In this document: positions 4,890 through 27,700 of the stretch, piece by piece
Position numbering within the stretch: the stretch's first letter is position 1
How the letters are laid out: each line of letters starts with the position of its first letter
Assembly: GCA_013153915.1 (NCBI GenBank)
Contig: JAADDL010000046.1
Location: forward strand, 1-27,700
Direction: 5' to 3'
DNA: 27,700 nucleotides
DNA from: Campylobacterota bacterium
Lineage (GTDB): Bacteria > Campylobacterota > Campylobacteria > Campylobacterales > JALSKU01
The notes under the pieces: model-generated
Seen by the model: only the letters and a program-made list of their open reading frames with translations
Told to the model about the DNA's origin: nothing
Database searches by the model: none
Position numbers and translations under genes: made by a program

Positions 4890-4905
4890 CCTAAGGAGAA
4901 TATAA

Positions 4906-6642: not shown

Positions 6643-6653
6643 AGGAGTAGATA

Positions 6654-7337: not shown

Positions 7338-7342
7338 TATCT

Positions 7343-7370
7343 TACAAAGGTCGAATTTTCGACCTTTGTA
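7343..7370 (+). terminator. Stem-loop after hydC (terminator or mRNA stabiliser)
   Basis: Perfect 13-bp inverted repeat TACAAAGGTCGAA-tt-TTCGACCTTTGTA followed by CCTCTTTATTTG. Confidence 0.7.
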
Positions 7371-7385
7371 CCTCTTTATTTGTAG

Positions 7386-7391
7386 TATAAT
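7386..7391 (+). promoter_or_regulatory. Internal -10 box for the hydD-hydE-hypF maturation genes
   Basis: Perfect TATAAT just downstream of the hairpin, 27 nt before GTG 7419. Confidence 0.5.
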
Positions 7392-7418
7392 AACACTTCC
7401 GACTTGAAAGGATATTTT

Positions 7419-7964
7419 GTGAAGATTTTAATACTCGGTATCGGCAATGTGCTTTTCGGAGATGAGGGTATAGGTGCGTATATGGCGCACTATCTCAATA
7501 AAAATTACGCTTTTATCTCCGATGAGCATAGTGTGGATGTGGTTGACGGCGGAACTTTGGCTCAAAGACTTATACCTATCATAGTCGAGTACGATATGGT
7601 CTATATAGTTGATTGCGTGGATGTCAAAGACGCAAAAGTGGGGGATGTGTTCTTTTTTGATTATGAAAAGATGCCTCCATATATAACTTGGCAGGGGAGT
7701 GCTCATGAAGTTGAGATGCTTCAGACCTTGCAAATGATAGATATGTACGGAGATAGACCGCCTACGAAGATAGTAGGGGTTGTGCCTTATGTGATAGGAG
7801 AGGATTCCACTTTTAGCTTGACGGACGATATGAAAAAATCGGCGGGAACAATACTAAAAATCATACTTGACGAACTTGAAAAACTGGGAGTCAAATCCGT
7901 AAAAAAGGCAAACTATACGCTTGATGAGGTGATAGAGGGGGTTTGTTTGGAGGGTGTTAGATGA
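7419..7964 (+). CDS. hydD: Hydrogenase maturation endopeptidase
   Basis: ILGIGNVLFGDEGIG, VDGGT, IVDCV and SAHE motifs. Start placed at GTG 7419 (AAAGGA at 7407-7412). Confidence 0.94.
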   Translation: MKILILGIGNVLFGDEGIGAYMAHYLNKNYAFISDEHSVDVVDGGTLAQRLIPIIVEYDMVYIVDCVDVKDAKVGDVFFFDYEKMPPYITWQGSAHEVEMLQTLQMIDMYGDRPPTKIVGVVPYVIGEDSTFSLTDDMKKSAGTILKIILDELEKLGVKSVKKANYTLDEVIEGVCLEGVR

Positions 7965-9790
7965 TTCTTAGATTTGATTTTGAATATGTCTCGACTTCGG
8001 GATTTTTATATGCCCTTCTTGAAAAAAAGCTCAAAGAGTCGTCTTTAAAAGGCGTTATTGCAAATGACGGCGATAAGATATCTTTGTATGTTGAGGCGGA
8101 TGAAGAGAGTTTGAAAAGTTTTGCCGACGATTTGTCGCTATCGATACCTTACTCTATATTTTTAAAAGATACGGATGTGACGGCGGTATCGAAGATGCCT
8201 ACGATATCCAAGCAGACAAAGATAAAACATAAAAGAGCTTTGCCGTTTTGTCCCGAGTGCTATAAAAAAGCCCTTAAATCGTATGACCCTTTTGTTGAGT
8301 GTGAAGCTTGCGGATACGGTGTAAAAAAGTCCGATTTGGTATATAAAAACTTTGCAAAAACCGTTACCAAAGATAATAAAGAGATATTTTCCAATCTCGC
8401 AAAAGCCGTATCAAACGGCGGTGTAGCCAAGATAAAGACATTTAACGGTATAAGATCGGTAGGTTTGGTGCAAGAGAAATATTTAGGCACAGGGGATGAT
8501 TTTGAGATAGTATGCGCCGACCTTGACGAGGTACATGAATATTTCCAACTCGATAAGGCTCAAATGCTAGCTTTGGGAAGTTTTGAAAAACCCGTTATCG
8601 CTTTGAAACCTAAAAACGGTTTTTTTCTAAAATATCCGTTTTTGGAGAGTTTGGCAAAGGTAAAGGTTAGATTGAGCGATGATTTGATACTTGAGATATT
8701 GATAAATGAGTTAAAAAGTTTTTCGCTAAAGCATATTTTTATCAAAAAAGTAAAAGCAAAGGACAGTTTCAATCTTGAGCTAGGTTTTGAGAGTGATATT
8801 CAAGATAGAGACTCTCTTGAAGCGGTGGTTTTAAAAAACGCTCAAATCGTTTTAAAAAGAGGCATAAGGACTCTTTTGCCGAAAGTGGATAAGGGCTACC
8901 AAAAAGAGGTTTGTGCTAAAAGTGAAAAATTTTTATCGAAAAATAGCAACGGATATATCGTAACAAATATCGCAAAAGAGCCTTTTGAGTGTGATAGAGT
9001 GTTTAGTCTCGCTAAAGGCGAACTATCTTACAAAGCTTCGCACGGCGCGTTTTATGCCTCTTTGAGCGAACACGGCTTGTATGATAAGACGATAGTCGGG
9101 GTGTATATGAGTAAAGAGCATGAGAGTAGCGTTATGATATACTCCGACAAGTTTGGTCTGGTGGAGCATATGAAATTTGAATTTTCATTTCCAAATAGCG
9201 TTGAAAAGCTGATGGAGTCGCTATCTAAAGAGGGTAAAACCTCTTTGAAACTGGTATCAAACTATATGTCAAAGTTTTCTAAACTAAAAGATAAAAAACT
9301 CTCTTTTTCAAAAGCGGCGGATATATTTGAACTATGGGGAGTTGCGGGTATAGTGCTTGGTCTTTATGAGGGAGAGGATGTAAAAGAGTCGGCAAAAAGA
9401 GTGCTGGAGTTAGCCGAGTCGTTTAACGGCAAAAAAGGTCCAAGGATTGATTATAAACTAAAAAGATACCAAGATAAACCCGTTCTTGACGCCTCGAAAG
9501 TGATAAAAACATCTATGAGTTATAAGCTGGCGTCCATGGATGCGTTCACTTTATGCTACGGTATAGTGGAGAGTTTTGCGGAGTTTGTAAACGACCTTAT
9601 AGATGAGATGGCAAAGGATTATAGTGTTGAAGGGGTCTGTTTTGGCGGTTCGCTGTTTGAGTCCGAAAAACTGCTTGAAAAGTTTTATACTATAACCGAT
9701 AAAAATTACAAAGTCTATCCATATAAAGAGTTTATACTTGATGATATGAATCTAGGATACGGAATCATCAATGCGGCACTTAGAGATTGA
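7961..9790 (+). CDS. hydE: Campylobacterota HydE-type hydrogenase accessory protein (degenerate HypF-like architecture)
   Basis: Sits between hydD and hypF. Has one CPEC..CEAC pair, and its C-terminal VCFGGSLFESEKLL parallels HypF VVLSGGVFQNKTLL. Confidence 0.7.
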   Translation: MILRFDFEYVSTSGFLYALLEKKLKESSLKGVIANDGDKISLYVEADEESLKSFADDLSLSIPYSIFLKDTDVTAVSKMPTISKQTKIKHKRALPFCPECYKKALKSYDPFVECEACGYGVKKSDLVYKNFAKTVTKDNKEIFSNLAKAVSNGGVAKIKTFNGIRSVGLVQEKYLGTGDDFEIVCADLDEVHEYFQLDKAQMLALGSFEKPVIALKPKNGFFLKYPFLESLAKVKVRLSDDLILEILINELKSFSLKHIFIKKVKAKDSFNLELGFESDIQDRDSLEAVVLKNAQIVLKRGIRTLLPKVDKGYQKEVCAKSEKFLSKNSNGYIVTNIAKEPFECDRVFSLAKGELSYKASHGAFYASLSEHGLYDKTIVGVYMSKEHESSVMIYSDKFGLVEHMKFEFSFPNSVEKLMESLSKEGKTSLKLVSNYMSKFSKLKDKKLSFSKAADIFELWGVAGIVLGLYEGEDVKESAKRVLELAESFNGKKGPRIDYKLKRYQDKPVLDASKVIKTSMSYKLASMDAFTLCYGIVESFAEFVNDLIDEMAKDYSVEGVCFGGSLFESEKLLEKFYTITDKNYKVYPYKEFILDDMNLGYGIINAALRD

Positions 9791-12089
9791 GAGATACAAG
9801 ATAAAGATTGAGGGCGTAGTCCAAGGTGTGGGATTTCGTCCTTTTGTGTATAGTATCGCTAAAAAGCACGATATAAAAGGTTTTGTAAAAAACTCTTCGG
9901 AGGGTGTTTTTATAGAAGCGGAAGGGACAAAAGAGAGTTTGCAAAAGTTTTTACTGGAGTTTAAAACCTCTTTGCCTCCTCTTGCCAAGATAGATAAAAT
10001 CTCTTTGGAAAATATAGAGATAAAAGGAAGTTGCGATTTTAAGATAGAAAAAAGCACACACTCCGATACCAAATATGCCTCAATCTCTCCCGATATCGCT
10101 ATATGCGAGGATTGTCTTAGAGAGTTAAGAGATAAAAATGATAGAAGATACGGCTATTATTTGATAAATTGCACAAATTGCGGTCCTAGATATACTATCG
10201 TAGAGAGAGTGCCTTACGATAGGAAAAATACCTCAATGAAGAGGTTTAGGATGTGTAACGAGTGCGAAAAAGAGTATGAAGACCCAAGCGATAGACGCTA
10301 TCATGCTCAGCCTATCTCTTGCCATAAGTGCGGACCTTTGGTGAAATTTTACAAGACTTACAAAAAAGAGATATTAGCTAGCAATGAAGAGGCTATAAAA
10401 CTTTGCGCAAAAAGCATAAAAAGAGGCAATATCGTAGCCGTAAAGGGGCTTGGAGGTTTTCATATAGTGTGTAGTGCCACTTCTCCAAAGTCGGTTAAAC
10501 TGCTTAGAAAAAGAAAAAACAGACCCACAAAACCGTTTGCTGTGATGTTTAAAAGTATAGAGGAGATAAAAAAGGTAGCGATACTCACCGAAAAAGACGA
10601 GGAGTTGATACTCTCCAAAGAGAAACCTATCGTAATCGTCAAGAAAAAAGAGCCTCACAAATTTAGAAAAAGAGAGTTGCCTATCACCTCTTTTGTGGCT
10701 CCCGCTATCGATAGGATAGGGGTCTTTTTACCCTATACCCCTTTACATCATCTGCTTTTTGAATATATTGAGTGTCCTATCGTAGCTACAAGCGCAAATC
10801 TTAGTAATGAACCTATCATAAGAGATATAGACGAGTTGTGTCAAAAGCTTGATAATGTAGCGGATTATGTTTTGGATTTCAATAGAGATATCATCAATGC
10901 TTGCGATGATAGCGTGGTGCAAGCGGTAAATAACAAAAAAGAGACTCTTAGGCTCGCAAGAGGTTATGCCCCAAGATATCAAAAACTCCCCTTTAAGCTA
11001 AAAGATAAAGTACTTTGCGTGGGGGCAAACCAAAAAGCCACTATCACTTTGGCTTATGAAGATATTTTGGTGACAAGTCCTCACATCGGAGATCTTGGCA
11101 GTATAGAGTCTATGGAGTATTTTGAAAGGACTATAGAGAGCTTTAAGAGGTTTTACGATTTTGAGCCAAATATTATCGTTTGTGATAAACATCCAAGTTA
11201 CGAAACGACTAAGTGGGCAAAAGAGTACCAAAATAGCCATAGTGAAACAAAACTCTTTCAAGTCCAACACCACTACGCTCATATCCTATCTTGTATGGCG
11301 GAGTTTGATATCAATGAAAAAGTTTTGGGATTTAGCTTTGACGGTACGGGATACGGCGATGACGGAACTATATGGGGCGGAGAAGTCTTTGAATGCGATA
11401 CTAAGAGTTATGAGAGAATTTATCATTTTAAAGATATAAAGCTCATAGGAGCTAATAGGGCTATAAAAGAGCCAAAAAGAGTGGCTTTGGCTATGCTTTT
11501 TGAAGAGTACGGTTTGAAAGATACGCTAAAACTAAGCAATCCTACCGTAAAAAGCTTTACGAAAATCCAGATAAAAAATCTCTACACGATATGGAAAAAC
11601 ACAACGCTAAAAACCAGCTCTTTGGGTAGAGTTTTTGACGGAGTCGCCAGTCTTTGCGATATTTTGCAAGTGAGTAACTATGAGGGTGAAAGTGGGCTTA
11701 TTTTGGAGTCTTTTTATGACGGAAGCATAAAAGATAGTTTTGAATTTGATATCAAAGATAAAGAGATAGCTTTTAAGGATTTGGTGCAAAAAAGTTTAGC
11801 TATCATGAAAGAAAATCTAAATATAAAAGATAAAAAAAGAGCGGTTTCTACGATGTTTTTAAATACTCTTACAAAGATAATCCTTCGTATCTCTAAAGAA
11901 TCAAAGCTCGATACGGTAGTTTTAAGCGGAGGTGTTTTTCAAAACAAGACTCTTTTGGAGATGGCTACAAACGAACTTGAAAAGGCTGGTAAAAAGGTCT
12001 ATTTTCAGCAAAATACCCCTATAAATGACGGCGGTATCTCTTTGGGACAAGCTTGGTGGGCGGTAAAAAACTTAGACTCTCTATCCTAA
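9771..12089 (+). CDS. hypF: Carbamoyltransferase HypF
   Basis: Acylphosphatase GVVQGVGFRPF, Zn fingers CEDC/NCTNCGPRY/MCNECEKEY/CHKCGP, KGLGGFH, RPTKPFAVM, QHHYAH, FDGTGYGDDGTIWGGE and NDGGISLGQ. Confidence 0.97.
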   Translation: MRHLEIERYKIKIEGVVQGVGFRPFVYSIAKKHDIKGFVKNSSEGVFIEAEGTKESLQKFLLEFKTSLPPLAKIDKISLENIEIKGSCDFKIEKSTHSDTKYASISPDIAICEDCLRELRDKNDRRYGYYLINCTNCGPRYTIVERVPYDRKNTSMKRFRMCNECEKEYEDPSDRRYHAQPISCHKCGPLVKFYKTYKKEILASNEEAIKLCAKSIKRGNIVAVKGLGGFHIVCSATSPKSVKLLRKRKNRPTKPFAVMFKSIEEIKKVAILTEKDEELILSKEKPIVIVKKKEPHKFRKRELPITSFVAPAIDRIGVFLPYTPLHHLLFEYIECPIVATSANLSNEPIIRDIDELCQKLDNVADYVLDFNRDIINACDDSVVQAVNNKKETLRLARGYAPRYQKLPFKLKDKVLCVGANQKATITLAYEDILVTSPHIGDLGSIESMEYFERTIESFKRFYDFEPNIIVCDKHPSYETTKWAKEYQNSHSETKLFQVQHHYAHILSCMAEFDINEKVLGFSFDGTGYGDDGTIWGGEVFECDTKSYERIYHFKDIKLIGANRAIKEPKRVALAMLFEEYGLKDTLKLSNPTVKSFTKIQIKNLYTIWKNTTLKTSSLGRVFDGVASLCDILQVSNYEGESGLILESFYDGSIKDSFEFDIKDKEIAFKDLVQKSLAIMKENLNIKDKKRAVSTMFLNTLTKIILRISKESKLDTVVLSGGVFQNKTLLEMATNELEKAGKKVYFQQNTPINDGGISLGQAWWAVKNLDSLS

Positions 12090-14359: not shown

Positions 14360-14367
14360 ACCGTTTC

Positions 14368-16068: not shown

Positions 16069-18683
16069 GGAGTGTCCTTTAAAAGTTCGTATATCTTTTG
16101 CTTTTTTATCTTGTCGAGTCTAAAGCGGTTGATTTTATTTAGATATGTCGGTATATAAGGCTCGATGGTTCTAATGATATTTTTTTTATCTTCATTGTAG
16201 TATTGCAGTAAGCTTTGGTTGATGTGTTTTAGTCTTATGGACACTTGCTTGCATCCAGGGTCGTCTTTGATGAGTTCGTTGTCTTTTAAGAGTTTTTTAT
16301 AATAAAGCTTTTTCGGTCTGTTGGTCTCTTTGAAAAGTTTTATAATTTTTTTGATGACACTCGGGGTAAAGATAGTAAAATTTTTCTCCTCTATTTTGCA
16401 ATATTCAAGGTAGTTTTTTGCTTTTGAATGTTTAAAATTGTATTCAAATAGTTTCCATGCCGACTCAATCTTTGCCTTTTTTCTTATATCGATACGGCAC
16501 TTTGCGGATAGTTCCTCATCCGTCATTTTATATGACTTGACTCTATCTAACGCTATTTTAAAAGCTTTTGTGATATCTTTTTTCGATATCGGTACGGCAT
16601 AGATAAGTTGATATATGTCTATTTTGGCGTTACTATTTCCAAATATGACACTTTGGGCTATATAGCTTAGAGCTTTTATATACTCTTTTTTGCTTTTTGC
16701 TTTGGGTAGCAAAAAGTATCCGTATGAGAGCATATCGTTGGGGTGCAGTTGCGATATGCCTCTTATGTACTCTCTTTTGGCGCTTTGGTAATCATTTTGA
16801 GCCGAAAAGCGAATCTTGGCTAAAATCTCTTGATTGTAGTCGTTATAACATGATGAGTCTATATATATCTTTACGGCTTCTTGTACAGTTTGTTTGTTTA
16901 GTCTTATTAGGTCTATACTTTTACCTCGAAAAGGGTTGCCAAGACCGTAAAGTTTAAATTTACCGCCGTTTTTTTCTATTTGACTTGTAAATATATTTAA
17001 TTCGCTTCCGAAATTTGGATAGTATCTGTTTTTTAGAGCATTATCTTGCAAATATAGTGCGGCGTTGTTTTTTGCCGTTAAGTTATTTAAAATATTGTTT
17101 GCTATTTTATTGTCTTTGATATATGCGGAGGTTGCTTTATGGTACGGGTCTCTTGCGAAATCTCTATATATCATGCCGTCAATATTTTTACTCATCACCT
17201 CTATACCGTTTTTGGCGTTATAGATGACGCTATTTTTTAAGATACTGTTTCTTAGGGAGTTTCTTATGATGATGCCGTCTATTTTATTTCCGATGATTTT
17301 GTTTTTATATATTAGTTCGTTATCGCTCTCTTGGACGGATATCCCCATATAGCCGTTTAGTGCCGAAAGATTGTCGTATATGAGGTTATTGTTGGATAAT
17401 CTATCGAGCATTATGCCTGCAGAGTGGTTGTTGAAAGTCAAGTTTTGAGCTATTATCGTATTGTTTACCTGTCTTGATATGACTATGCCGTGAGCGTGTT
17501 TCGCTCTTGCCGTTATGTTTCTTGCTATTATAAGGTTGTTTGAGTAGTCGTGAGGGTCAATGTTGTATATGAGATTATCGTGCATTAGATTTCCGATAAG
17601 TGCGCTATTTTTTGATTCGGAGCAGTAAAATCCCATCATATTATCTACCATAGTATTGCCGACATAGTAGCCTTGCGGCATACCGAAGCTATTTAGATAA
17701 GAGAACAAAGAAAATCTTTTGACTATTAAATCTTTTGGAAAATGTAGCAATGAGATACCGAATGTTGCGGAGGTCGAGTGAAAGCCGAGACCTTTAAACG
17801 TGTTGCCGATATAGTAATTTTTTGAGCCCGTAAGCCCTATGATGCATGGACGAGGTTTTTGAAGCCCTATGAGTAAAAGTTCATTTTCGGGTATCTTTTC
17901 TCTTTTATCGTAACTGTTTGTGTTTGAGTTCCAAGTGATAAATTTTGTATTTTTTGCGTAGATATCTCCGTGATTCATGATAAAGACGGGTTTTGGAGTG
18001 GTTTGTAGCAATACGGTCGCATCTTCAAATATCAGCTTTGCCGTAGGCGAAACATATATGGGAGTTTTTAAAATATATCTATTTTTTCCTAATTTGTCGA
18101 TGATTTTTCGATTTGAGATTTTTTTGTATAGATATCTTAAAGAGTATGTTCCGTTGTATAGCACCATAACTTTCGTCGCAAAACGGTGTCTTTTGTAATA
18201 TTTATAAAAACTATATAGGTTTATGGTAGGCATAAATGTTATCTTAGACATATCCACAAAGTCTATGCCGTTGCCGTAGAATCTCTTTGGAAATTTTAAA
18301 AGCAGTTTTTCGGGCGTATATCTTGAGAGGATTTTTTCTATATTTTTAGGTTTTACGCTTGATGGACGGGGAAATATGACATATTGGTCTTTGAAAGATG
18401 CTTTGTGTTTTATTATTTTTGGATTTTTAAAGTTAAAATCCAAACGGTGCAGTGAATCGTTTGCGTCTTGAAATGTTTTGTAGCATCCTACAAAAGATAT
18501 GTTCGAGTCTCTTGATATCTTTTCGTTCAATAGCGGGCATTGGGGTTGTGTATAGTTTAAATTGTCTTTGAAATTAAACGGATAAACGGGGGTAAACAGT
18601 CCCGTTTCGCTCCTTATTGAGTAGCAATAACCGCCAAAAAGCTCTATCGCTAAAAAAAGATACAAAAGACTCTTTTTAAGCAT
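16065..18683 (-). CDS. algG: AlgG-like mannuronan C5-epimerase (beta-helix) with extra N- and C-terminal domains
   Basis: Catalytic segment NLIYNIDPHDYS (DPHD at 17547-17558) followed by HGIVISRQVNN and GIMLDR, as in AlgG. Asn-rich parallel beta-helix repeats. Confidence 0.9.
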   Translation of the reverse strand: MLKKSLLYLFLAIELFGGYCYSIRSETGLFTPVYPFNFKDNLNYTQPQCPLLNEKISRDSNISFVGCYKTFQDANDSLHRLDFNFKNPKIIKHKASFKDQYVIFPRPSSVKPKNIEKILSRYTPEKLLLKFPKRFYGNGIDFVDMSKITFMPTINLYSFYKYYKRHRFATKVMVLYNGTYSLRYLYKKISNRKIIDKLGKNRYILKTPIYVSPTAKLIFEDATVLLQTTPKPVFIMNHGDIYAKNTKFITWNSNTNSYDKREKIPENELLLIGLQKPRPCIIGLTGSKNYYIGNTFKGLGFHSTSATFGISLLHFPKDLIVKRFSLFSYLNSFGMPQGYYVGNTMVDNMMGFYCSESKNSALIGNLMHDNLIYNIDPHDYSNNLIIARNITARAKHAHGIVISRQVNNTIIAQNLTFNNHSAGIMLDRLSNNNLIYDNLSALNGYMGISVQESDNELIYKNKIIGNKIDGIIIRNSLRNSILKNSVIYNAKNGIEVMSKNIDGMIYRDFARDPYHKATSAYIKDNKIANNILNNLTAKNNAALYLQDNALKNRYYPNFGSELNIFTSQIEKNGGKFKLYGLGNPFRGKSIDLIRLNKQTVQEAVKIYIDSSCYNDYNQEILAKIRFSAQNDYQSAKREYIRGISQLHPNDMLSYGYFLLPKAKSKKEYIKALSYIAQSVIFGNSNAKIDIYQLIYAVPISKKDITKAFKIALDRVKSYKMTDEELSAKCRIDIRKKAKIESAWKLFEYNFKHSKAKNYLEYCKIEEKNFTIFTPSVIKKIIKLFKETNRPKKLYYKKLLKDNELIKDDPGCKQVSIRLKHINQSLLQYYNEDKKNIIRTIEPYIPTYLNKINRFRLDKIKKQKIYELLKDTP

Positions 18684-19801
18684 TATCTTTTTCCGGACTC
18701 TTTGTCTATCTGATACCAGTCGTACTTATTTAGTAGCGTATCTATAGTGATGACCGCACTTGTTCCTATAAACTCCTTGGGAGGTTGAAAATCTATCGGT
18801 TTTAAGAGTATTTTGTCATAATTTCTAGCTTGATTATATATATTTTCCAAAGGTCTTGTATGCTCTTCTATCGGCTTGTACGGAAATTCGGCTTTTACCA
18901 CTTTTGCGTAAAATTTCTCTCCGTTTAAAAGTTGAACTACGGCGATATCCCCCTCTTTTATCTTAAAAAGGTCTTTATGCAGGATATTTGCCGTCAAGTA
19001 TATCTCGTAGTTTTTTTCCAATATCACAAAAACAGGTTCCCCCACATTTCTAAAGTCGCCGTTGTGAATCATAATTTTGTAAAGTATTCCGTCAAGCGGG
19101 GATTTGACGGCTTTTATGCCTCCATACATCAAGTGAGCGTACATTAGCGCTTGAGTGGTGTTTATCTCTTCGTTCGGTTTAAAATCTTTTGCAAATTCTA
19201 TATATGAAGGGGAGGGCGCTCGTATGATAGTCATATTCGTATCGAAAAAGGCGTTTTCACTCTTTACGATATATGTTCTTTGGTACATAACAAATAGCAA
19301 AAACAGAAGTAAAAAGATGATGAAAGACCATAGTATCAACAGCACCAAGATAGACTTTTTTTTATCAATTTTTGTCTTTTTCTCTTTTTTGTGCATAAAA
19401 TTGGCTCTTGTGACCGCATGGATAATGTCATCTTCGGTGATTATATCTCCCGAGAGATACGATGAAATGATTTGGTTTAGTATGGAGATTTGCTGAGGTG
19501 TCAAATCCGTAAATCTAACGCCTACTATATTGTCCGACCTTTTAGATACGAATTCTAGTTTTAGATTGTCTATAACCGTTTCAAAGTCGTCAAACCTAAA
19601 TATCATTTTTGCGGTTAAACTCTTTTTTTTGAAGAGTTCTTCGGATAAACCCTCTATGCCGGCGCCCGAAACGGACCAGTCATAAACTCTATATTTTTGC
19701 CCCTCTATCTCTATGGTTGCGGGTATTTTGTACCTAGCGTGCTGTCTTGTAAGTTCCGCCTCATGTACGATTTGACCCTCTTTGTGACTATCTTTACCCA
19801 T
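18683..19801 (-). CDS. alg44: Alg44 c-di-GMP-binding co-polymerase (PilZ + TM + membrane-fusion-like domain)
   Basis: IVHEAELTRQHAR (RxxxR) and DWSVSG (DxSxxG), a single TM helix and a periplasmic MFP-like region. TAATG overlap with algG. Confidence 0.92.
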   Translation of the reverse strand: MGKDSHKEGQIVHEAELTRQHARYKIPATIEIEGQKYRVYDWSVSGAGIEGLSEELFKKKSLTAKMIFRFDDFETVIDNLKLEFVSKRSDNIVGVRFTDLTPQQISILNQIISSYLSGDIITEDDIIHAVTRANFMHKKEKKTKIDKKKSILVLLILWSFIIFLLLFLLFVMYQRTYIVKSENAFFDTNMTIIRAPSPSYIEFAKDFKPNEEINTTQALMYAHLMYGGIKAVKSPLDGILYKIMIHNGDFRNVGEPVFVILEKNYEIYLTANILHKDLFKIKEGDIAVVQLLNGEKFYAKVVKAEFPYKPIEEHTRPLENIYNQARNYDKILLKPIDFQPPKEFIGTSAVITIDTLLNKYDWYQIDKESGKR

Positions 19802-19810
19802 TATTTTCTC

Positions 19811-21328
19811 CTATATCCAATCGAAATATGCCCATAAATCATCGAAATTTATATTTTGAACTAAAAAGTTCACGATTATCAAGAAAAATAGAAATTGCGC
19901 CAAAAGCATACTATTTGAGCTAAATATCTGATACCAGGCGCTAAATCTATCTCCCGCACTCAATTTTGTCTTTTGCCTTGTCCATGACTGTTTGTATAGA
20001 TGATTCCAGATATATATCTTGACAAACGAGCCTACTATCTGGTTGTAGTACAAAAAAAACGGCCAGCTTGGCAAGATATCCTCCCTGGATGTTCTATAAG
20101 CGAATGTCATCAAAAGCCTACTTAGTAAAACCCACCAAAGATATGCTCCAAATACATACGCTCCCCAGTGAATAGCGCCGAAAAACGCTATAAATAGACC
20201 GTATGGAGATGTCCACATGGTAAATCTTTGGTCCCACAGAGCGTACCAAGCGTATGAGCCAAGCACCTCTTTTGGTACGTCAAGCGCTCTTTTGTTTGTT
20301 CGGTATTGGTTTCCAAACCATCTTTGCATAAGCATAAGCGAGCCGATAAAATAGTTTTTGTGAGGTATCTCCTCTATAGTGTAGACCATCACATCGGGAA
20401 CATATAGCATATCCCATCCGTTTTTTATCACATAGTACCAGCTTGATTTGTCGTCTCCGGTTAAAAATCTAAACCTTCCAAGCCTCCAGTGTTCTATAAA
20501 ATCGTTTTGTACGGTATCGACAAATTCTCTATCGGCGACTATGTTGGCTCTTATCATGGACATTCTGCCGGTGAGCGTAAGAACTCTGTTTGATAACGCC
20601 AAAGAGGACATATTGACATTTCTTTGGGCAAATCTTAGTCTATACCATCTTCTGTATATATTTGTGACAAAATCTTTTCCGTCGAGTCTGGCGTCCTCAT
20701 CCGTCGTCAACGCTCCTAATTTTTCGTTGAGTCCGAAAAGTCTTGCCGATTTTCTTAAAGTTCCCGTAGATAGTATCGAATCACCGTCCACAACGGCGAC
20801 TACGGACCTAAAAAGATTGACCGGAGAGTTCGCTATCACTCTAAAGCCGACGGATAGTCCGTCTCTTTTGCCCGTACCGGCTATCTTGGAGATGATAAGT
20901 TTTACTCTTTTTGGAGGGTTTAACTCCAAAAATATTTTTCTAACAAGCCTCTCTTCGCTCATCTCCACTATAGAAGCTATAAGGGTGACATCATATCCGC
21001 ACTCTATAGCCTCTTTGATAGCGGCTCTGTAGACTTCGGCGGAAACGCTTGTACCTATCCTAAAAGTGGTTATCAAGATAAATATATGCTCGGGGTCGAT
21101 ATCGTCATTTGAGTTTTGCTCCATTTCTCTTATCTTTTTAAATCTAATCTTTTTATATATCAAAGACCTGGCGATATTCAAAGAGAACCAAGTGTATCTC
21201 CATATACCGACAAGTCCCAAGAAAAATATCAATTTTCTTGCATATGGGTCAAACTCTTGATACGGTATCAAAAAGCCTATGATAAGGATAAACAAGATGT
21301 AGATAAGAAAATATAGAGCCGTTTTCAC
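19811..21328 (-). CDS. alg8: Alg8 mannuronan polymerase (GT2)
   Basis: GTGKRDGL, VVDGDS, VLTLTGRMS, FRFLTGDDKSSWY and LMQRWFGN (LxxRW), with N- and C-terminal TM helices. GTG start. Confidence 0.94.
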   Translation of the reverse strand: MKTALYFLIYILFILIIGFLIPYQEFDPYARKLIFFLGLVGIWRYTWFSLNIARSLIYKKIRFKKIREMEQNSNDDIDPEHIFILITTFRIGTSVSAEVYRAAIKEAIECGYDVTLIASIVEMSEERLVRKIFLELNPPKRVKLIISKIAGTGKRDGLSVGFRVIANSPVNLFRSVVAVVDGDSILSTGTLRKSARLFGLNEKLGALTTDEDARLDGKDFVTNIYRRWYRLRFAQRNVNMSSLALSNRVLTLTGRMSMIRANIVADREFVDTVQNDFIEHWRLGRFRFLTGDDKSSWYYVIKNGWDMLYVPDVMVYTIEEIPHKNYFIGSLMLMQRWFGNQYRTNKRALDVPKEVLGSYAWYALWDQRFTMWTSPYGLFIAFFGAIHWGAYVFGAYLWWVLLSRLLMTFAYRTSREDILPSWPFFLYYNQIVGSFVKIYIWNHLYKQSWTRQKTKLSAGDRFSAWYQIFSSNSMLLAQFLFFLIIVNFLVQNINFDDLWAYFDWI

Positions 21329-21341
21329 CTGTTTTTATCTC

Positions 21342-22658
21342 CTAAACTATCCTAAAGTAGTTATCTTGTGAGATTATGTCCTCAACAGCCGCCACGTCTA
21401 TCACTATTTTATCTTTATATTTTTTATAAAGCCCTTTAAATCTATCCTCTTTGTTGCCTATTATCAAAACTTCGGAGTTTGCTATAACATTTTGCAAATC
21501 ATCGCTCAATCTTTCGTTGATATGACTTAGTTCTCCCTCCAAAAGAGATTTTGCCGAAGCGTCATTTTTTGCTTTAACTACGGTATCGTCATAAATCGCC
21601 ACACTATATCCTTTGCCTATAAGCATCTCCGCTAGTTCAAGCATGGGAGATTCTCTCAAGTCATCGGTTCCGGGTTTGAAACTAATCTTTAATATACCTA
21701 TTTTTCTCTTTTTTAGGGGTTTGATGTAGCTATTGAAAACTCTTTTTATCTGATATTCGTTGCTCTGCATCAATGAATTTAGCAAAGGGGTATTTTCGTC
21801 TATCTCTTTTGCCTTGTAGGTAATGGCTCTGACATCTTTAGGCAAGCAACTACCCCCAAAGGCAAAGCCCGGTTTTAGATAGTAGCTTGATATGTTTAGC
21901 TTTCTATCCGCACAAAATATATCCATAACTTTGTGAGAGTCTATTTTAAGCTTGGAGCAGATTAAGCCTATTTCGTTTCCGAATGTTACTTTGGTGGCAT
22001 GCCAAGAGTTGTCGGCATATTTTACCATTTCCGAAGTCTCTATCTCGGTTTTAAACAAAGGCGACTCTTTCGTGTCTATAAATGAGTAAAGCTCTTCAAG
22101 TATATCGGCGGTTTTTTCGTCGCTTGCCCCTATGACCGTTTTTGGCGGATGGTAAAAATCCCAAATAGCCGTGCTTTCTCTTAGAAATTCGGAGTTTGAA
22201 GCGTATCCGAAATCAACTCCGACTTTTTTGCCGGAATATTGTTCGACTATAGGTATCACCACCTCTTTTCCAGTGCCCGGAAGCACCGTACTTCTCATGG
22301 CTATCACATGAAATTCGTTTTTATCCTTTAGCGACAATCCTATCTCTTTTGAAACCTCTTTGATATATCTTAAATCTATGCTACCGTTTTCTCTTGAGGG
22401 TGTGCCGACGGCTATAAAAGTTATTTGAGTTTTCTTAACGGCACTTTTCAAATCCGTAGATGCCTTCAATCTTCCGTCTTTTACATTTTTTTCGATAAGT
22501 TTATCCAAATCCTTTTCTATGATGGGAGTTTTGCCTCTGTTTATAAGCTCTACCTTAGTATCGTCTATATCTACGCCTATAACATTGTGTCCTTCATTGG
22601 CGAGTGCGGCACTGCATACCGCTCCGACATATCCCAATCCCACTATCGAAATATCCAT
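21342..22658 (-). CDS. algD: GDP-mannose 6-dehydrogenase
   Basis: GLGYVG, EFLRESTAI, EMVKYADNSWHATKVTFGNE, YYLKPGFAFGGSCLPKD (catalytic Cys) and SFKPGTDDLRESP. Confidence 0.93.
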   Translation of the reverse strand: MDISIVGLGYVGAVCSAALANEGHNVIGVDIDDTKVELINRGKTPIIEKDLDKLIEKNVKDGRLKASTDLKSAVKKTQITFIAVGTPSRENGSIDLRYIKEVSKEIGLSLKDKNEFHVIAMRSTVLPGTGKEVVIPIVEQYSGKKVGVDFGYASNSEFLRESTAIWDFYHPPKTVIGASDEKTADILEELYSFIDTKESPLFKTEIETSEMVKYADNSWHATKVTFGNEIGLICSKLKIDSHKVMDIFCADRKLNISSYYLKPGFAFGGSCLPKDVRAITYKAKEIDENTPLLNSLMQSNEYQIKRVFNSYIKPLKKRKIGILKISFKPGTDDLRESPMLELAEMLIGKGYSVAIYDDTVVKAKNDASAKSLLEGELSHINERLSDDLQNVIANSEVLIIGNKEDRFKGLYKKYKDKIVIDVAAVEDIISQDNYFRIV

Positions 22659-22659
22659 T

Positions 22660-23376
22660 TCAATCCTTTATAATCAATTTATCAAATAGTACTTTAGCGC
22701 AACCGATATCTTGCATATATACGCCCGCTTTAAAGTAGTTGTAGTATTGTTTCCAATATCCTACATACATATCAACCTTTTTTGTATTGTTTATGTAGAT
22801 TTTTAGCATATTGTTCGCTACCGTAATCTTGACGTCAAAAAATGTTTTTGGCATCTTTCCCAAATCTATCTTTTTATAGTGGCTAAATTTGCTCCAATTT
22901 AACCTAACTATAGCCCAAATATGCCCCTTTTTGCCTTTTAGCTTCTTATACCAAACAACCCTAAGCAGAGGTTTGTTTATCGTCGGTCTATCTTTTAGGG
23001 TGCTATCGGCGTGTATTTGTAAAAATGTAAACTCCCTTTTGGAATTTAGAGGAAATAGCTTTACTCTTGCTTGGAGGATTTTTTCGTTTTCGTCGCTAAC
23101 TTTCCATATATTTTTCGCTCTTAGTTCACTTCTGTTACGCTCTCCGCACATTTTAAAGACCATATATCTTCTATCTTGCAAATAAAAAAATTTATTTGAA
23201 TACGCTTCAAAATCCCCGTATTTTCTGCCGAACATCGGATCATAAGGGCTTGAGGGCGCTTGTAGTTTGGATTTGTTTAGTATATCTTTAAACTTATCCA
23301 AAGAGTACGGCGAGTCGTGCGCAAAAGATAAAACGGCTATGATAAAAAGCGATAAAAATGCTTTAAACCCTATCAT
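22660..23376 (-). CDS. Exported PL7-family alginate lyase
   Basis: All three PL7 motifs are present: RSELR, QIH and YFKAGVYMQ. Signal peptide present. Start placed at the second ATG (23376) because GAGG abuts ATG 23382. Confidence 0.92.
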   Translation of the reverse strand: MIGFKAFLSLFIIAVLSFAHDSPYSLDKFKDILNKSKLQAPSSPYDPMFGRKYGDFEAYSNKFFYLQDRRYMVFKMCGERNRSELRAKNIWKVSDENEKILQARVKLFPLNSKREFTFLQIHADSTLKDRPTINKPLLRVVWYKKLKGKKGHIWAIVRLNWSKFSHYKKIDLGKMPKTFFDVKITVANNMLKIYINNTKKVDMYVGYWKQYYNYFKAGVYMQDIGCAKVLFDKLIIKD

Positions 23377-24751
23377 ATTCATCCTCGTATCTTATGATAT
23401 CGTCTTCTCCAAGATACTCTCCCACTTGTATCTCTACGATTTTCAACGGCACTTGCCCGGGGTTGGATAGCCTATGTTTTTGCCCTATTGAGATATATGA
23501 GGATTCGTTAGGTCGTAAAAGAAAAGTATCGTCCTCTTTTGTGACTTCGGCTATACCTTTTACGACAACCCAATGTTCGCTACGGTGCATATGCTTTTGT
23601 AAAGATAGTTTTTTGCCCGGGTTTACCGTGATGATTTTTACCTTAAAGTTAGGATACTCTTTTAGTACGGTATATTTCCCCCAAGGTCTATAGACGCTTC
23701 TTCCGAACTTTATCACTTCGGGGTTGGTTTTTTTAAGCTTTTGAACTATCTCTTTGATGCTTTGAGAATCTCCCCTTTTTGTTACCAGTAAAGCGGTAGG
23801 GGTATCTATAACGATAGTGTCGTCTATATCTTTTAGCACGATTTGTTGTTTGTATCTTCCGAAGACAAGGTTTTTTTTCGAATCTATAGCCAAAAGTTTT
23901 TCGTTTTGCGTGTTTAGATTTTCATCTTTAGGTAACACTTCATAAAGCGAGTCAAAATCCCCGACATCTTTCCAGTCTATATCGGAAACGACCGTCTTTA
24001 TCTTTTTGCTATGCTCCATAACCGCATAGTCAATGCTTTGGTCTTTTATCTGAGACATATCTTCTTTGTTTATCCTGATATAATCTCTCTTTTTCGAATT
24101 TTCGTAAGCCTTTTTAGAGGCTTCGTAGATATCGGGCGCATAGTTTTTTAACTCTTGAAGATAGGTTTTGGCTTGAAACATAAACATCCCGCTATTCCAA
24201 AAATAGTCGCCTTCTTGTAGATATCTTTTTGCGGTAGCGATATCGGGCTTTTCAGTAAAAGAGGCTACCTCACAAACCCTATCTTCGCAATTTTTCGTTT
24301 TGATGTATCCGTATCCCGTATTGGGTGTTGTCGGCGTTATCCCAAAGGTCACCAAATACCCCCTTTGGGCTTCTTTTTTAGCTTTTGATACGGCGTTTTT
24401 ATAATTGTCGTCGCTTTTTATCAAATGGTCGGAAGGTGTGACGAAGAGTATCTCGTCCTCATCTACGCAAAAAGCGCTAAAAGCTATCGACGCGGCGGTA
24501 TTTCTACCCATAGGTTCAATAACGGACGTATAGTTTTCGATACCCGTCTCATCAAGTTGGTCGGTAGCTAAAAAGTATTGATTTTCGTTTGAGACGATGA
24601 TAAAGTTGTCGCAAAAAGCGCTATTTCTTTTGATAGTCATTTGAAAAAGAGAGTCATCCTCAAACATCTTTAAAAACTGTTTCGGTAAATTTTCTCTACT
24701 GATAGGCCAAAGCCTTGTTCCGCTTCCGCCGCACAATATAGCGTTTGTCAT
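23363..24751 (-). CDS. algA: Bifunctional mannose-1-phosphate guanylyltransferase / mannose-6-phosphate isomerase (AlgA/ManC)
   Basis: ILCGGSGTRLWPISR, PKQF, EPMGRNTA, FTEKPD, WNSGMF, SIDYAVME, WKDVG, and a cupin with RPWG and LSLQKHMHRSEHWVVV. Confidence 0.95.
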   Translation of the reverse strand: MTNAILCGGSGTRLWPISRENLPKQFLKMFEDDSLFQMTIKRNSAFCDNFIIVSNENQYFLATDQLDETGIENYTSVIEPMGRNTAASIAFSAFCVDEDEILFVTPSDHLIKSDDNYKNAVSKAKKEAQRGYLVTFGITPTTPNTGYGYIKTKNCEDRVCEVASFTEKPDIATAKRYLQEGDYFWNSGMFMFQAKTYLQELKNYAPDIYEASKKAYENSKKRDYIRINKEDMSQIKDQSIDYAVMEHSKKIKTVVSDIDWKDVGDFDSLYEVLPKDENLNTQNEKLLAIDSKKNLVFGRYKQQIVLKDIDDTIVIDTPTALLVTKRGDSQSIKEIVQKLKKTNPEVIKFGRSVYRPWGKYTVLKEYPNFKVKIITVNPGKKLSLQKHMHRSEHWVVVKGIAEVTKEDDTFLLRPNESSYISIGQKHRLSNPGQVPLKIVEIQVGEYLGEDDIIRYEDEYDRV

Positions 24752-24776
24752 ATATACCCTTATATAATTTTTCTTT

Positions 24777-24807
24777 ATTATATCTTTTTTTCTTAAATAA
24801 AAAGATA
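24777..24807 (-). promoter_or_regulatory. alg operon -10 box with overlapping 9-9-9 inverted repeat
   Basis: Minus-strand TATAAT at 24782-24777. Inverted repeat TATCTTTTT (24781-24789) / AAAAAGATA (24799-24807). Confidence 0.4.
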
Positions 24808-24826
24808 AAACGGCTTCAAAATAGGC

Positions 24827-25480
24827 TTAAATTAGCCCTTTAATAATCTCAAATCTACTTTTTTCGTCATAATTAAATCTAAATTCACACTCTTTTAAAT
24901 AGTAAAAAAAGTTTTCCCTTTTTACACCTTTATATTTGACTATCTCATTTTCAAAGAAATTCCAAAATTTGACTATCAAATTTTCCCTTTTTTGGAGTTT
25001 TGATATCTTGTTAAACATCATAAAGTTGGAAAACTCTTTGTAGTAAGCTTGGTCTATCCCGTCGCTTAAAAGTTCATTTTTGTACTTATTAAGACTTGGC
25101 AGTAAAAGGTTGTATATCTTATTTTCATAATGAAAGGTCAAGAAATCCACCGCATCGAAAATCTTGCTCTGTTCTTTCTTTTTGGATTTTTCCAGGTAGA
25201 TATATTCGTCATACTCTATCACCTCTTTGCCTTGAAAATTCTCTTCGCAAAATAGGGCTATTTTTTTTCGAAACAAATCGTATCTTTTTTTTACGGTTAG
25301 GTAATTTAGGGAAGTTTTATTAGAACACTCAAGAGCGTTTAAACCTTTGCAAAAGCATTCGAGTATATTTAACTCTTTTTCTATCTTTTTGGGGCTGAAT
25401 TTTCTTTTGCATACTTTGCATTTTAGGTAGCCGTTTTTAAGGGTGTAAAAAGTTTCGTTTTCGCAATATTTACACTTCAT
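24827..25480 (-). CDS. IS1595-family (ISXO2/IS1016-like) transposase-derived protein, apparently catalytically degenerate
   Basis: Zn ribbon C3/C6/C21/C24, an HTH-like segment, IEYDEY, and FW...KYKGV...YLKECEFRFN C-terminus. The NxIExFW glutamate is replaced (NLIVKFW). No terminal inverted repeats found by eye. Confidence 0.75.
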   Translation of the reverse strand: MKCKYCENETFYTLKNGYLKCKVCKRKFSPKKIEKELNILECFCKGLNALECSNKTSLNYLTVKKRYDLFRKKIALFCEENFQGKEVIEYDEYIYLEKSKKKEQSKIFDAVDFLTFHYENKIYNLLLPSLNKYKNELLSDGIDQAYYKEFSNFMMFNKISKLQKRENLIVKFWNFFENEIVKYKGVKRENFFYYLKECEFRFNYDEKSRFEIIKGLI

Positions 25481-25486
25481 ACTAAA

Positions 25487-25495
25487 ATTATATCA
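25487..25495 (-). promoter_or_regulatory. Extended -10 promoter (TGATATAAT) predicting a leaderless mRNA
   Basis: Minus strand reads TGATATAAT-TTTAGT-ATG, with only 6 nt between the -10 box and the start codon and no Shine-Dalgarno. Confidence 0.6.
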
Positions 25496-25557
25496 AAATT
25501 AGTCCCAAAAATATATAAGAAAAAGGAAAATTAATATCGGTAAAATATTAAAATCTA

Positions 25558-25587
25558 TATAATTACGAATGATTATTCATATAGGAG
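25558..25587 (+). promoter_or_regulatory. nik operon promoter: -10 box, operator-like palindrome and RBS
   Basis: TATAAT at 25558-25563, GAATGA-ttat-TCATAT at 25567-25582, AGGAG at 25583-25587. Confidence 0.55.
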
Positions 25588-25594
25588 TTAAAAG

Positions 25595-26233
25595 ATGCAT
25601 ATACCTGACGGATATCTTTCGCCCGAAACCTGTATAGCGACCTATGCGGTAGCGGTTCCATTGTGGGTTTACGGATTTAAAAAGTTAAAATCGACTTTAA
25701 ATGAAGAGACTTTGCCGCTTATAGGGGCTTTGAGCGCCGTTAGTTTTGTTATCATGATGTTTAACATCCCGATACCCGGAGGCACTAGCGGACACGCCGT
25801 AGGGGCGGTGCTTATAGCGATGCTTTTTGGTCCTTGGATCGGCTTTGTATCGGTATCTTTGGTGCTACTTATCCAAGCTTTGGTCTTTGGCGACGGTGGA
25901 GTATCGACTCTTGCGGCAAACGCATTGTCGATGGCTTTTGTGGGCTCTTTTGCTGGATATTACGCTTTTGAAGCTTTAAAGAGATTTAGATTTGCACCGT
26001 TTTTTGCGGGATGGGTAGGTATAGTCGCCTCTTCCGCACTCACGGCTTTGCTTCTTGGTATCCAGCCTCTTTTTTGGACAAAAGGCGGACACCCTTTGTA
26101 TTTTCCGTTTGATTTGAAGACCGCTTTTGTAGCGCTTGTGGGTTCTCATATGCTGTTTTTCGGAGTAGCGGAGGGCATCTTTACCGCCATAGCTTACTCA
26201 TATCTTAGAAAAAAAGAGAGGAGTTTGGCATGA
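25595..26233 (+). CDS. nikM: ECF nickel/cobalt transporter S component (NikM/CbiM type; nickel favoured)
   Basis: N-terminal metal-binding MHIPDGYL (NikM-type, versus MHIMEG in CbiM), GTSGHAVG and FGDGG, with multiple TM helices. Confidence 0.88.
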   Translation: MHIPDGYLSPETCIATYAVAVPLWVYGFKKLKSTLNEETLPLIGALSAVSFVIMMFNIPIPGGTSGHAVGAVLIAMLFGPWIGFVSVSLVLLIQALVFGDGGVSTLAANALSMAFVGSFAGYYAFEALKRFRFAPFFAGWVGIVASSALTALLLGIQPLFWTKGGHPLYFPFDLKTAFVALVGSHMLFFGVAEGIFTAIAYSYLRKKERSLA

Positions 26234-26529
26234 AACGAAAGGCTTTTTATATTTTGGGGGTTTTGATAGTTCTTTCTCCTCTTGGTCTTATCAGCGATGC
26301 GGACGCTTGGGGAGAGTGGGGCAATGAGTACTACCAAAAGATACTCGGATTTATCCCCGAGGGGATAAAGAACGCAAAAGGTATAAAGGCTTTGATGAGT
26401 GATTATTCTCTTAGCGGTACAAATGATGTAGTCGGCTACTACGCTTCCGCAATCGTAGGGATAGCTATACTTTTTGGGATATATTTTATCCTTGCAAAAA
26501 CGCTAAAAGATGAAAAAAGTATTCTTTAA
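26230..26529 (+). CDS. ECF Ni/Co transporter auxiliary membrane subunit (NikN/PDGLE-like)
   Basis: Two TM segments around SPLGL...AWGEW. Overlaps both neighbouring genes. Confidence 0.7.
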   Translation: MKRKAFYILGVLIVLSPLGLISDADAWGEWGNEYYQKILGFIPEGIKNAKGIKALMSDYSLSGTNDVVGYYASAIVGIAILFGIYFILAKTLKDEKSIL

Positions 26530-27091
26530 AAAACACCGCTTTTTTCAAACGGTTTTAAATCTATATAGAGTATCTTTTATCGTAACTCTCTTGGCGCTTT
26601 TGTGGCTAAGAGATGTACGAGTGATATTTGTCGTGACGGTTTTGCTGTGGATAGTCTCATATAGAGATGTTGTAAAATTAAATAAAAGAGTGCTAAAGTC
26701 CATTTTTTTATTTAATGCGGGGATAAGTTTGGGATATGTGGCACTCTCTTTTTTTAAAGATGTGGATGTTTTGAGCTTTTTGGTATATATCAACCTAAAA
26801 GTCTATCTTTTGACATATTTTGTGTTTTGGTTTTTCAAAAGAGTCGATATGATAGAGTTTTTCTCCTTTTCAAAGGAGTTAAGCTACCTTTTGAGTATAT
26901 CTTTGTCTCAGATAGTTTCGTATAAAAAAACTTATGAGGATTTTAGGCTTGCCTATAAAGCCAGAGTGATAAAGAGATTGAGAGATAGAGAAAAAGGGTT
27001 TATCGGTAGAGTGTTTGACTTTTTCTTGCAAAAGGCGCTAAAAGATGCCAAAGAGAGAAGTTTGGCGATGAAAGCGAGGGGATTTTTTTGA
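26510..27091 (+). CDS. ECF transporter T component (NikQ/CbiQ-like)
   Basis: Hydrophobic N-terminal half, with C-terminal AYKAR and AMKARGF (the ARG motif of T components). Confidence 0.8.
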   Translation: MKKVFFKKHRFFQTVLNLYRVSFIVTLLALLWLRDVRVIFVVTVLLWIVSYRDVVKLNKRVLKSIFLFNAGISLGYVALSFFKDVDVLSFLVYINLKVYLLTYFVFWFFKRVDMIEFFSFSKELSYLLSISLSQIVSYKKTYEDFRLAYKARVIKRLRDREKGFIGRVFDFFLQKALKDAKERSLAMKARGFF

Positions 27092-27700
27092 TAAGTTTGA
27101 GAGATATATCTTACTTTTACGATGACAAGATAGCGTTAAACGATATAAGTCTTGATATAAACAGCAAAGAAAAGGTTGTTTTGCTTGGAAGCAACGGATG
27201 TGGCAAATCAACCCTTCTTAGAGTTTTGGCGGGTCTTTACTTTGCAAAAAGCGGAGAGTATCTGCTTGAGGGCAAAAAGATAACCAAAAAGAGTGTCGAT
27301 AAAGAGTTTAGAAAAAGAGTCGGCATACTTTTTCAAAATCCTGAAAGTATGATATTTAATCCCACGGTAAGAGATGAGATAGCCTTTTCGCTTAGAGAGT
27401 TTGAAGAGAGCGATATAGAAAAAAGGGTGGAGGATATATCTAAAAAGTTCGGTTTGACTCACCTTTTAGATAAAAATCCTCTTTATCTAAGCGGTGGGGA
27501 GAAGCAAAAGGTGATGTTGGCGTCGATGTTGGTATATGAGCCCGATATACTTCTGCTAGACGAACCGACGGCGGCAATGGATCCGAGAACTACGGGGTGG
27601 TTTATAGATATGCTTTTGGAGTTGCAAAAGAGTGTTGTGGTGGCTACGCATGATCTCTCGCTGGCTTATGAAATGAGCGATAGAGCGATAGTCTTGGATG
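27088..27700 (+). CDS. ECF transporter ATPase (NikO/CbiO-like), truncated by the window end; not in the ORF track
   Basis: TTG start overlapping the previous TGA. Reads MISLRDISYFY, Walker A GSNGCGKST, Q-loop LFQNP, LSGGEKQK, Walker B ILLLDEPT and VATHD. Confidence 0.9.
   Translation, partial: MISLRDISYFYDDKIALNDISLDINSKEKVVLLGSNGCGKSTLLRVLAGLYFAKSGEYLLEGKKITKKSVDKEFRKRVGILFQNPESMIFNPTVRDEIAFSLREFEESDIEKRVEDISKKFGLTHLLDKNPLYLSGGEKQKVMLASMLVYEPDILLLDEPTAAMDPRTTGWFIDMLLELQKSVVVATHDLSLAYEMSDRAIVLD

Follow-up and report, generated by a model that had tools for sequence, protein, structure and literature searches.

Gene T, in the 27,700-nucleotide stretch of Campylobacterota DNA examined here (the window), encodes a domesticated derivative of an IS1595-family transposase. 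The domestication is very strongly supported. For the role of the protein, the most economical mechanism, as judged from the sequence and a predicted structure, is that of a DNA-binding, autoregulated factor acting in the control region that T shares with the divergent nik/hyp operon, and we give this mechanism close to an even chance of being right.

Domain structure of the T protein

The gene and the parts of its protein lie at the following positions of the window.

24827..25480 (stop codon included), minus strand: gene T, a 217-aa domesticated IS1595-family transposase derivative (uninterrupted ORF, homologs, profile and fold)
25409..25474, minus strand: zinc ribbon, residues 3-24, CxxC-x14-CxxC (four invariant Cys; weak PF12760 Zn_ribbon_IS1595 matches in 17 of 38 family members)
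25238..25393, minus strand: three-helix HTH-like region, residues 30-81 (AlphaFold2 model and structural alignment)
24830..25222, minus strand: decayed RNase-H-like transposase core, residues 87-217 (MAFFT alignment and AlphaFold2 model)
24872..24979, minus strand: conserved C-terminal IS1595 tail, residues 168-203, N..FW...G...FFYYLKExEFxFN (sub-threshold PF12762 and NF033547 matches; invariant residues)

The initial annotation, made from the DNA letters, had described an uninterrupted 217-aa ORF with zinc-ribbon cysteines. The ORF was indeed intact, and C3, C6, C21, and C24 were invariant in an alignment of 38 members of the T family. The ribbon opens the protein directly at its N-terminus. 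Invariant in the same alignment were also F43, Y60, R71, Y95, F172, G185, F191, L195, K196, E197, E199, and F200. The residues D91/E92 and the YLKECEFRFN tail pointed out earlier were both present, and L195, K196, E197, E199, and F200 of the tail are among the invariant positions. The most conserved block of the 38-member alignment was the C-terminal helical tail, and the HTH region was less conserved. Outside the zinc ribbon, the alignment contained no conserved Cys or His, and no conserved ligand- or metal-sensing residues. Given this lack of conserved Cys/His beyond the ribbon, the suggestion that T is metal-responsive is not supported.

The AlphaFold2 model of T had a pLDDT of 85 and a pTM of 0.81. 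An HTH-like segment had been proposed for this protein, and residues 30-81 were modelled as three confident helices (30-44, 49-56, and 60-81, all at pLDDT >90), while their matches to HTH DNA-binding domains, which include the DNA-binding domains of SETMAR and the P-element transposase, reached only middling Z scores of 5-6. The top full-length match among solved structures was the ISCth4 transposase, also with a middling score (Z 6.1 over 158 residues).

Relationship of T to IS1595 transposases

A word-indexed search with T returned 277 homologs of near-equal length and 55-78% identity; those with names were called 'transposase' or 'hypothetical' and came from Sulfurimonas, Sulfurospirillum, and Nitrosophilus. 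A profile of the T family, built from the 38-member alignment, was searched against 1.8 billion representatives. It recovered 38 family representatives at E <1e-30 and, past the T family, a continuum of proteins of 250-345 aa with E values from 1e-33 to 1e-13. Of ten continuum proteins tested, eight passed the Pfam DDE_Tnp_IS1595 threshold and the other two were near or just below it. T itself scored under the thresholds of both databases, with 13.9 bits against a cut-off of 27 for Pfam DDE_Tnp_IS1595 (PF12762) and 29 bits against a cut-off of 75 for NCBIfam transpos_IS1595 (NF033547), and both matches fell within its last 40 residues.

The MAFFT alignment showed that T aligns over its full length with proteins that pass the DDE_Tnp_IS1595 threshold. 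When the T model was compared with the AFDB clusters by Foldseek, the best non-self matches were IS1595, ISXO2, and IS1016 transposases (E 1e-6 to 1e-4), and the probability was 1.0 for IS1595 and ISXO2 entries; against the PDB, Foldseek gave no match at E 0.001 or better. In an unrooted maximum-likelihood tree, 26 representatives of the T family were separated from 35 IS1595-like proteins by one branch with 100/100 support and a length of about 1.4, a topology that fits a single domestication origin of the family. Taken with the predicted fold, the alignments indicate that T is homologous to the IS1595 transposases. With the IS1595-family (ISXO2-like) DDE transposases, which carry PF12760 and PF12762, T shares the N-terminal CxxC...CxxC ribbon, the HTH region, the 'DE' strand, and the C-terminal N..FW...G....YLKExEFRxN tail.

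Loss of catalytic residues

However, T is about 40-80 residues shorter than these transposases and has neither their KRGRG loop, nor the strand bearing the second Asp, nor the catalytic Glu. The corresponding motifs compare as follows.

ELDEsyfGG..KGKRGRG in IS1595-type proteins, EYDEYIYLEKSKKK in T: T keeps the first acidic residue (D91, which is Glu in some members) and has lost the glycine/arginine loop
vYYTDsfksY...H.vNH in IS1595-type proteins, deleted in T (about 25 residues): this is the strand with the second Asp
NGIEGFWsyaK in IS1595-type proteins, NLIVKFW (V171) in T: the catalytic position is V, T, Q, S, I, or E across the T family

In the MAFFT alignment, a K-rich stretch of T replaces the GG..KRGRG loop. 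The column of the catalytic Glu is variable in the T family because NLIVKFW stands where NGIEGFW was. The AlphaFold2 model contained only three core strands, which were followed by helices. The loss of the third catalytic residue and of the KRGRG core, both claimed in the initial annotation, was thus seen again in the alignment, which additionally revealed the deletion of the second-Asp strand. The intact DD(E/N/H) triad of functional IS1595 transposases was not found in T. The right end of the element, the KRGRG loop, the catalytic Glu, and the second Asp along with its strand are all lost, and T therefore cannot transpose.

Copy number, mobility, and selection

The genome from which the window comes (65% complete) contains one copy of T. 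We searched 300 Campylobacterales genomes of at least 90% completeness and counted a match of at least 190 bits as full-length T. Such matches were present in 57 of the 300 genomes, with exactly one copy in 55 of them and two copies in the other 2, and none of the 59 full-length matches had an internal stop. True multicopy IS1595 elements scored below 52 bits in this search and occurred in two other families (f11 and f26), both without T; the T-bearing genomes were mostly without true IS1595 copies. A scan of one genome per GTDB species showed that 240 species encode a relative of T, with identity down to 35-40%. The locus counts given below (54/58, 41/57, and those out of 76 loci) were drawn from the best 80 of these 240 species, which belong to Sulfurimonas, Sulfuricurvum, Arcobacteraceae, Sulfurospirillum, Nitratiruptor, Nitratifractor, and Hydrogenimonas.

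The dN/dS of T in the closest pairs was 0.07-0.10 (about 0.08), similar to that of hypF (0.09), although the ratios for T are only rough because dS was saturated. The identity of T to the window copy rose with that of hypF (Spearman 0.70, n=39), a correlation that is descriptive only, since the genomes are related.

No inverted repeats above the AT-rich background were found flanking T, in agreement with the absence of terminal inverted repeats noted at the outset. In the two nearest relatives (L032 and L033), the 3' ends of T and hypF overlap, which leaves no space for a right end. A 13-nt inverted repeat around T (24759-24771 with 25507-25519) was rejected, since it equals many AT-rich chance pairs and falls within the lineage-specific alg junction. 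Among the relatives that we found with the catalytic motifs preserved, the nearest was P0154, a very small insertion sequence of 827 bp with GGTGATT... inverted ends (L035:2959-3785, and L036) and only about 40 nt before its ATG; the same protein occurs in two unrelated contexts, in freshwater-sediment-type metagenomes.

If T were a plain insertion sequence, or the remains of one that decayed recently, and had no host function, this would agree with the name 'transposase' that it bears in databases and with its weak matches to the IS1595 models. However, such an element is hard to reconcile with an intact ORF whose relatives are spread over 240 species-level genomes and yet keep a fixed locus, with the single copy and the low dN/dS, or with the loss of catalytic residues and the lack of detectable inverted repeats, and the true insertion sequence P0154 differs from T in its length, its ends, and its two contexts. 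We consider this explanation extremely improbable. Functional IS1595 elements are set apart from T by the same properties: T is single-copy, shows fixed synteny and purifying selection, and has no inverted repeats that we could find. The view put forward in the initial annotation, that T is not mobile and is a co-opted IS1595 derivative, was borne out by the single copy (in the own genome and in 55 of 57 carriers), by a linkage to hyp and nickel-transport genes that is kept across families, by purifying selection at a hypF-like dN/dS, and by the decayed triad.

Three side observations were made during these searches. A 246-aa IS1595 derivative without catalytic motifs, P0160, was present in a different organism (L077:4927-5667), where it sits amid histidine kinases and response regulators and may be an independent domestication. 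In several metagenome-assembled genomes, T lies at or across a contig end (G009:C99 and C201, G001:C30, G005:C71, G006:C236, and G015:C46). In the public vent/epibiont runs X1 and X2 (window 24600-25500), contigs break repeatedly in T and its 3' flank but not in cbiM; breaks at T could reflect strain-level variation at the junction.

Gene neighbourhood of T

The genes around T in the window are listed below.

807-1430: TetR-family gene
1434-3601: group-2 hydrogenase small and large subunits
3687-9790: hydA, hydB, hydC, hydD, and a hydE-like gene
9771..12089, plus strand: hypF, the ancestral convergent neighbour of T (Pfam)
12086-24751, minus strand: eight-gene alginate-type (alg) operon
25595..27699, plus strand: cbiM-cbiN(PDGLE)-cbiQ-like-cbiO, ECF-type Ni/Co uptake genes, divergent from T (Pfam)

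The gap between the ATG of T and that of cbiM/nikM (25595) is 114 bp, which confirmed the head-to-head arrangement with nikM that had been described. No family was found when the entire window was searched with Rfam, and hence no sign of a riboswitch before cbiM.

The linkage of T to hydrogenase maturation genes was found in many species. A divergent hypB lies upstream of T in 54 of the 58 species loci with enough flank, a convergent hypF lies downstream within 7 kb in 41 of 57, and hypD is located 1.2-4 kb from T on the opposite strand in most genomes. The first gene upstream of T varied: it was a putative permease of the c16 type in 27 loci, cbiM in 11, hypB in 6, and NicO in 2. The c16-type protein has no family match, and its assignment as a nickel transporter comes from a HAFGPDH-type signature and its context; one NicO-type upstream gene was confirmed by Pfam. 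In the two relatives mentioned above, L032 and L033 (72-76% identity), cbiMNQO continues into hypB-hypC-hypD-hypE-hypA. Clusters of the same build without T were found in G028 and G033, and no remnant of T was present in the gap between hypF and the transporter genes of G028. These clusters work without T, and the cluster in itself thus does not require T.

We also considered an accessory role for T in the maturation of [NiFe]-hydrogenase or in nickel delivery, exerted by binding to partner proteins such as HypF, HypB, or the transporter. The transposase fold would then be a scaffold and DNA binding irrelevant. The tight and ancient linkage of T to hypF and hypB with no single promoter type, its persistence while the first upstream neighbour changes, and the higher conservation of the C-terminal helical tail than of the HTH region are consistent with such a role. 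However, the retained zinc ribbon and HTH region are the DNA-recognition module of the transposase family, no conserved metal-binding motif was found outside the ribbon, and clusters of the same type exist without T. We regard the protein-contact role as unlikely, though it deserves more credit than the other rivals discussed in this paper.

In the lineage of the window, the alg genes form a 12.7-kb block between hypF and T. Since T and hypF overlap in the nearest relatives, the alg operon represents a lineage-specific insertion at the T/hypF junction. The regulation of the downstream alg operon by T had been offered as one possibility; because the insertion is local, such regulation is not supported as an ancestral role of T. 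No terminator-like site was found between T and algA/manC, so read-through is possible. In other species, the T/hypF junction holds 0 to 6.6 kb of other DNA, with unrelated inserts of 0.7-6.6 kb in some of them, and a gap that ranges from overlap to 6.6 kb, and 12.7 kb here, marks the junction as a recurrent insertion site.

This recurrent invasion could be taken to mean that T is a DNA-binding relic with a non-transcription role, either marking or shaping the hypF/T junction or silencing incoming related elements, and there are known cases of shortened transposases acting as inhibitors of their own family, such as the Tn5 inhibitor and IS1 InsA. However, convergent gene ends are commonly neutral landing sites, no repeat or attachment-site structure was seen at the junction, and most T-bearing genomes have no true IS1595 copies to silence. 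We judge such a role to be improbable.

The promoter of T and motif M1

Three sequence features were located between T and cbiM.

25487..25495, minus strand: extended -10 box TGATATAAT, 6 nt before the ATG of T, with no Shine-Dalgarno (sequence reading)
25499..25521, minus strand: motif M1 (TTCTTATATATTTTTGGGACTAA), 23 nt, just upstream of the -10 box of T; candidate operator or relic of the left end of the element
25566..25579, no strand assigned: palindrome M2 (TGAAT-N4-ATTCA type), between a -10-like box and the cbiM RBS; probably not the site of T

An extended -10 box 6 nt before the ATG, with a leaderless-type layout, had been read from the window, and we found it again there. In 43 of the 76 species loci, a TGnTAnAAT-type box ended 5-6 nt before the ATG of T; only two of these 43 had a Shine-Dalgarno sequence. 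The mRNA of T is predicted from this layout to be leaderless or near-leaderless. The one RNA run with sequence from part of the window covered only 25588-25727, in cbiM, and gave no transcript coverage of T.

In most species, motif M1 ends 17-19 nt before the ATG of T. Of the 76 species loci, 59 had it with a score of at least 14 bits, and there its distance from T was fixed. In its own genome M1 is unique, with a score of 36 bits against 18 for the next best site, and it was absent from the 14-kb hyp cluster of the T-less genome G028, where the best score was 3.9. Because M1 lacks symmetry and is present as a single copy, it could be no more than a part of the promoter architecture. The 3' half of M1 resembles a stretch of about 8 nt (GGACCAAA) within the left end of P0154, the true IS relative; over 8 nt the likeness could be due to chance, and it is no more than a lead. 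In one subclade, the DNA equivalent to M1 falls inside an N-terminal extension of the T ORF.

Two further readings of M1 were rejected. As a sigma-54 promoter it fails, because several genera do not keep the GG and the TG of the extended -10 box occupies the '-12' position. An apparent inverted copy of M1 in the coding region of T (25376-25402) was discarded because the FSPKK codons vary freely among the 76 species.

Palindrome M2, the TetR-family gene, and NikR

The palindrome M2 was present before cbiM, NicO, or the c16-type transporter gene, which are three non-orthologous genes, in 8 of 13 loci, and it also occurs before hydA (window 3688-3701). In 30 genomes, the M2 site before hydA did not track T; it tracked the group-2 hydrogenase operon together with the TetR-family gene, whose orthologs are 62-87% identical. 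It was present in G028 and G033, where TetR is present and T is absent. In G019 and G040, complete genomes in which T is present and TetR is absent, M2 was found neither before hydA nor in the T-hypB intergenic region. M2 was absent, too, from every one of the six genomes in which NikR is present and T is not. This distribution is evidence, not proof, that T does not read M2, since just a few lineages, two in either direction, tell the alternatives apart. The proposal that the GAATGA-N4-TCAT palindrome is the operator of T did not survive this comparison, in which the palindrome was kept in two T-less genomes and missing from two regions in two T-bearing complete genomes. Two exact M2 sites elsewhere in the own genome, one before a molybdopterin oxidoreductase gene and the other between DUF3373 and DUF134, were set aside, as they showed no clear nickel regulon.

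Two observations concern M2 and hydA themselves. The combination of M2 with a TetR gene heading the group-2 (sensor-like) hydrogenase operon (loci L046-L075) suggests, at the sequence level, a TetR-based hydrogen/nickel regulon in chemolithoautotrophic Campylobacterales. The longest ORF of hydA (window 3687-4889) has 400 aa with a twin-arginine signal at residues 55-73, and its relatives have 385 aa; the true start of hydA is probably 3' of 3687, which would put the palindrome at 3688-3701 in the leader.

NikR, a nickel-responsive ribbon-helix-helix repressor, is often found beside nickel uptake or hydrogenase genes, and in a sample of 41 genomes its distribution was largely complementary to that of T: NikR_C was absent in 17 of 18 T-bearing genomes, and T was absent in 8 of 9 NikR-bearing genomes. 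The sole genome of the 41 with both was G032, in which NikR lies between hypF and T/hypB, convergent with T (L025, G032:C1:1211555-1212472). The complementarity cannot be read as functional replacement, because the pattern follows phylogeny and the genomes are not independent observations. Unlike NikR, T has an unrelated, transposase-like fold and no conserved His/Cys nickel site, and no Pfam match to an RHH or NikR_C domain was found in T even at E up to 1.

These data bear on the idea that T is a nickel- or hydrogen-responsive repressor that reads TGAAT-N4-ATTCA and stands in for NikR. In its favour, T is divergent from the transporter genes with the palindrome in the shared intergenic region, and T and NikR seldom occur in the same genome. 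However, the palindrome precedes hydA where T is missing, is not found where T is present in G019 and G040, and matches the distribution of the TetR-family gene and the group-2 hydrogenase operon; NikR and T also stand side by side in G032, and the pattern of the two is phylogenetic. It is unlikely that T is a nickel sensor of the NikR kind, and likewise unlikely that it is the reader of the palindrome; the combined idea seems to us about as improbable as a role of T at the hypF junction.

Proposed origin and function of T

We propose that T began as the transposase of a small insertion sequence of the IS1595 family, which inserted itself between hypF and the genes for nickel transport and HypBCDE in an ancestor of the non-Campylobacter, non-Helicobacter Campylobacterales. 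With the losses described above, of the right end of the element and of the catalytic parts, transposition ended. The zinc ribbon, the HTH region, and the C-terminal helical tail were retained under purifying selection, and T has been passed on as a single-copy gene together with the hydrogenase cluster. The protein may still bind DNA, as its ancestor presumably bound its own left end. Its most likely target would be M1, which abuts the leaderless-type promoter of T itself in the control region shared with the divergent nik/hyp operon, and T would act there as an autoregulated transcription factor of the genes for hydrogenase maturation and nickel supply.

The DNA-binding, autoregulated factor is the most economical reading because the DNA-recognition module and the helical tail are retained and M1 is the only cis-element that travels with T. 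That T is a DNA-binding regulator in general is plausible; the invariant zinc ribbon, the modelled HTH helices, and a motif M1 that is conserved, unique, and absent without T all point to it. The fullest form of the proposal, in which a transposase-born transcription factor binds M1 as a relic of the left end, controls its own leaderless transcript and the divergent nickel-uptake/hyp operon, and so serves as a dedicated hydrogenase-maturation regulator of chemolithoautotrophic Campylobacterales, is more speculative, and we hold it to be possible but rather doubtful.

Transposase domestication is a known kind of event. In SETMAR, IS1 InsA, the Tn5 inhibitor, and the TnpB-derived TldR, the DNA-recognition part was kept after catalysis was lost and was reused, by the host or by the element, as a DNA-binding factor. 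InsA-type proteins bind an element end that overlaps their own promoter, and this layout is the one that, by analogy, may apply to T at M1. In contrast to these proteins, the binding of DNA by T is putative. To our knowledge, none of them is of bacterial IS1595 origin or tied to a hydrogenase/nickel cluster, and the conversion of DDE transposases into conserved host genes, common in eukaryotes, has rarely been documented by clear cases in bacteria. The papers found in our search to pair IS1595 with domestication concern ciliates and other eukaryotes. Our literature search found no description of the T gene, and no IS1595-derived, catalytically dead, locus-fixed gene in the [NiFe]-hydrogenase maturation cluster of a bacterial order.

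The species-level genomes that encode the T family, at least 240 in number, come from bacteria that oxidise hydrogen and sulfur and are dominant at vents and in sulfidic waters. The annotation of T as 'transposase' or 'hypothetical' can distort mobile-element counts in these bacteria and falsely suggest that their hydrogenase cluster is mobile. If T is a regulator, it would offer a concrete handle on the control of hydrogenase maturation and nickel supply in these organisms, and, if this is true, T would fill a regulator role in chemolithoautotrophic Campylobacterales, which are mostly without NikR.
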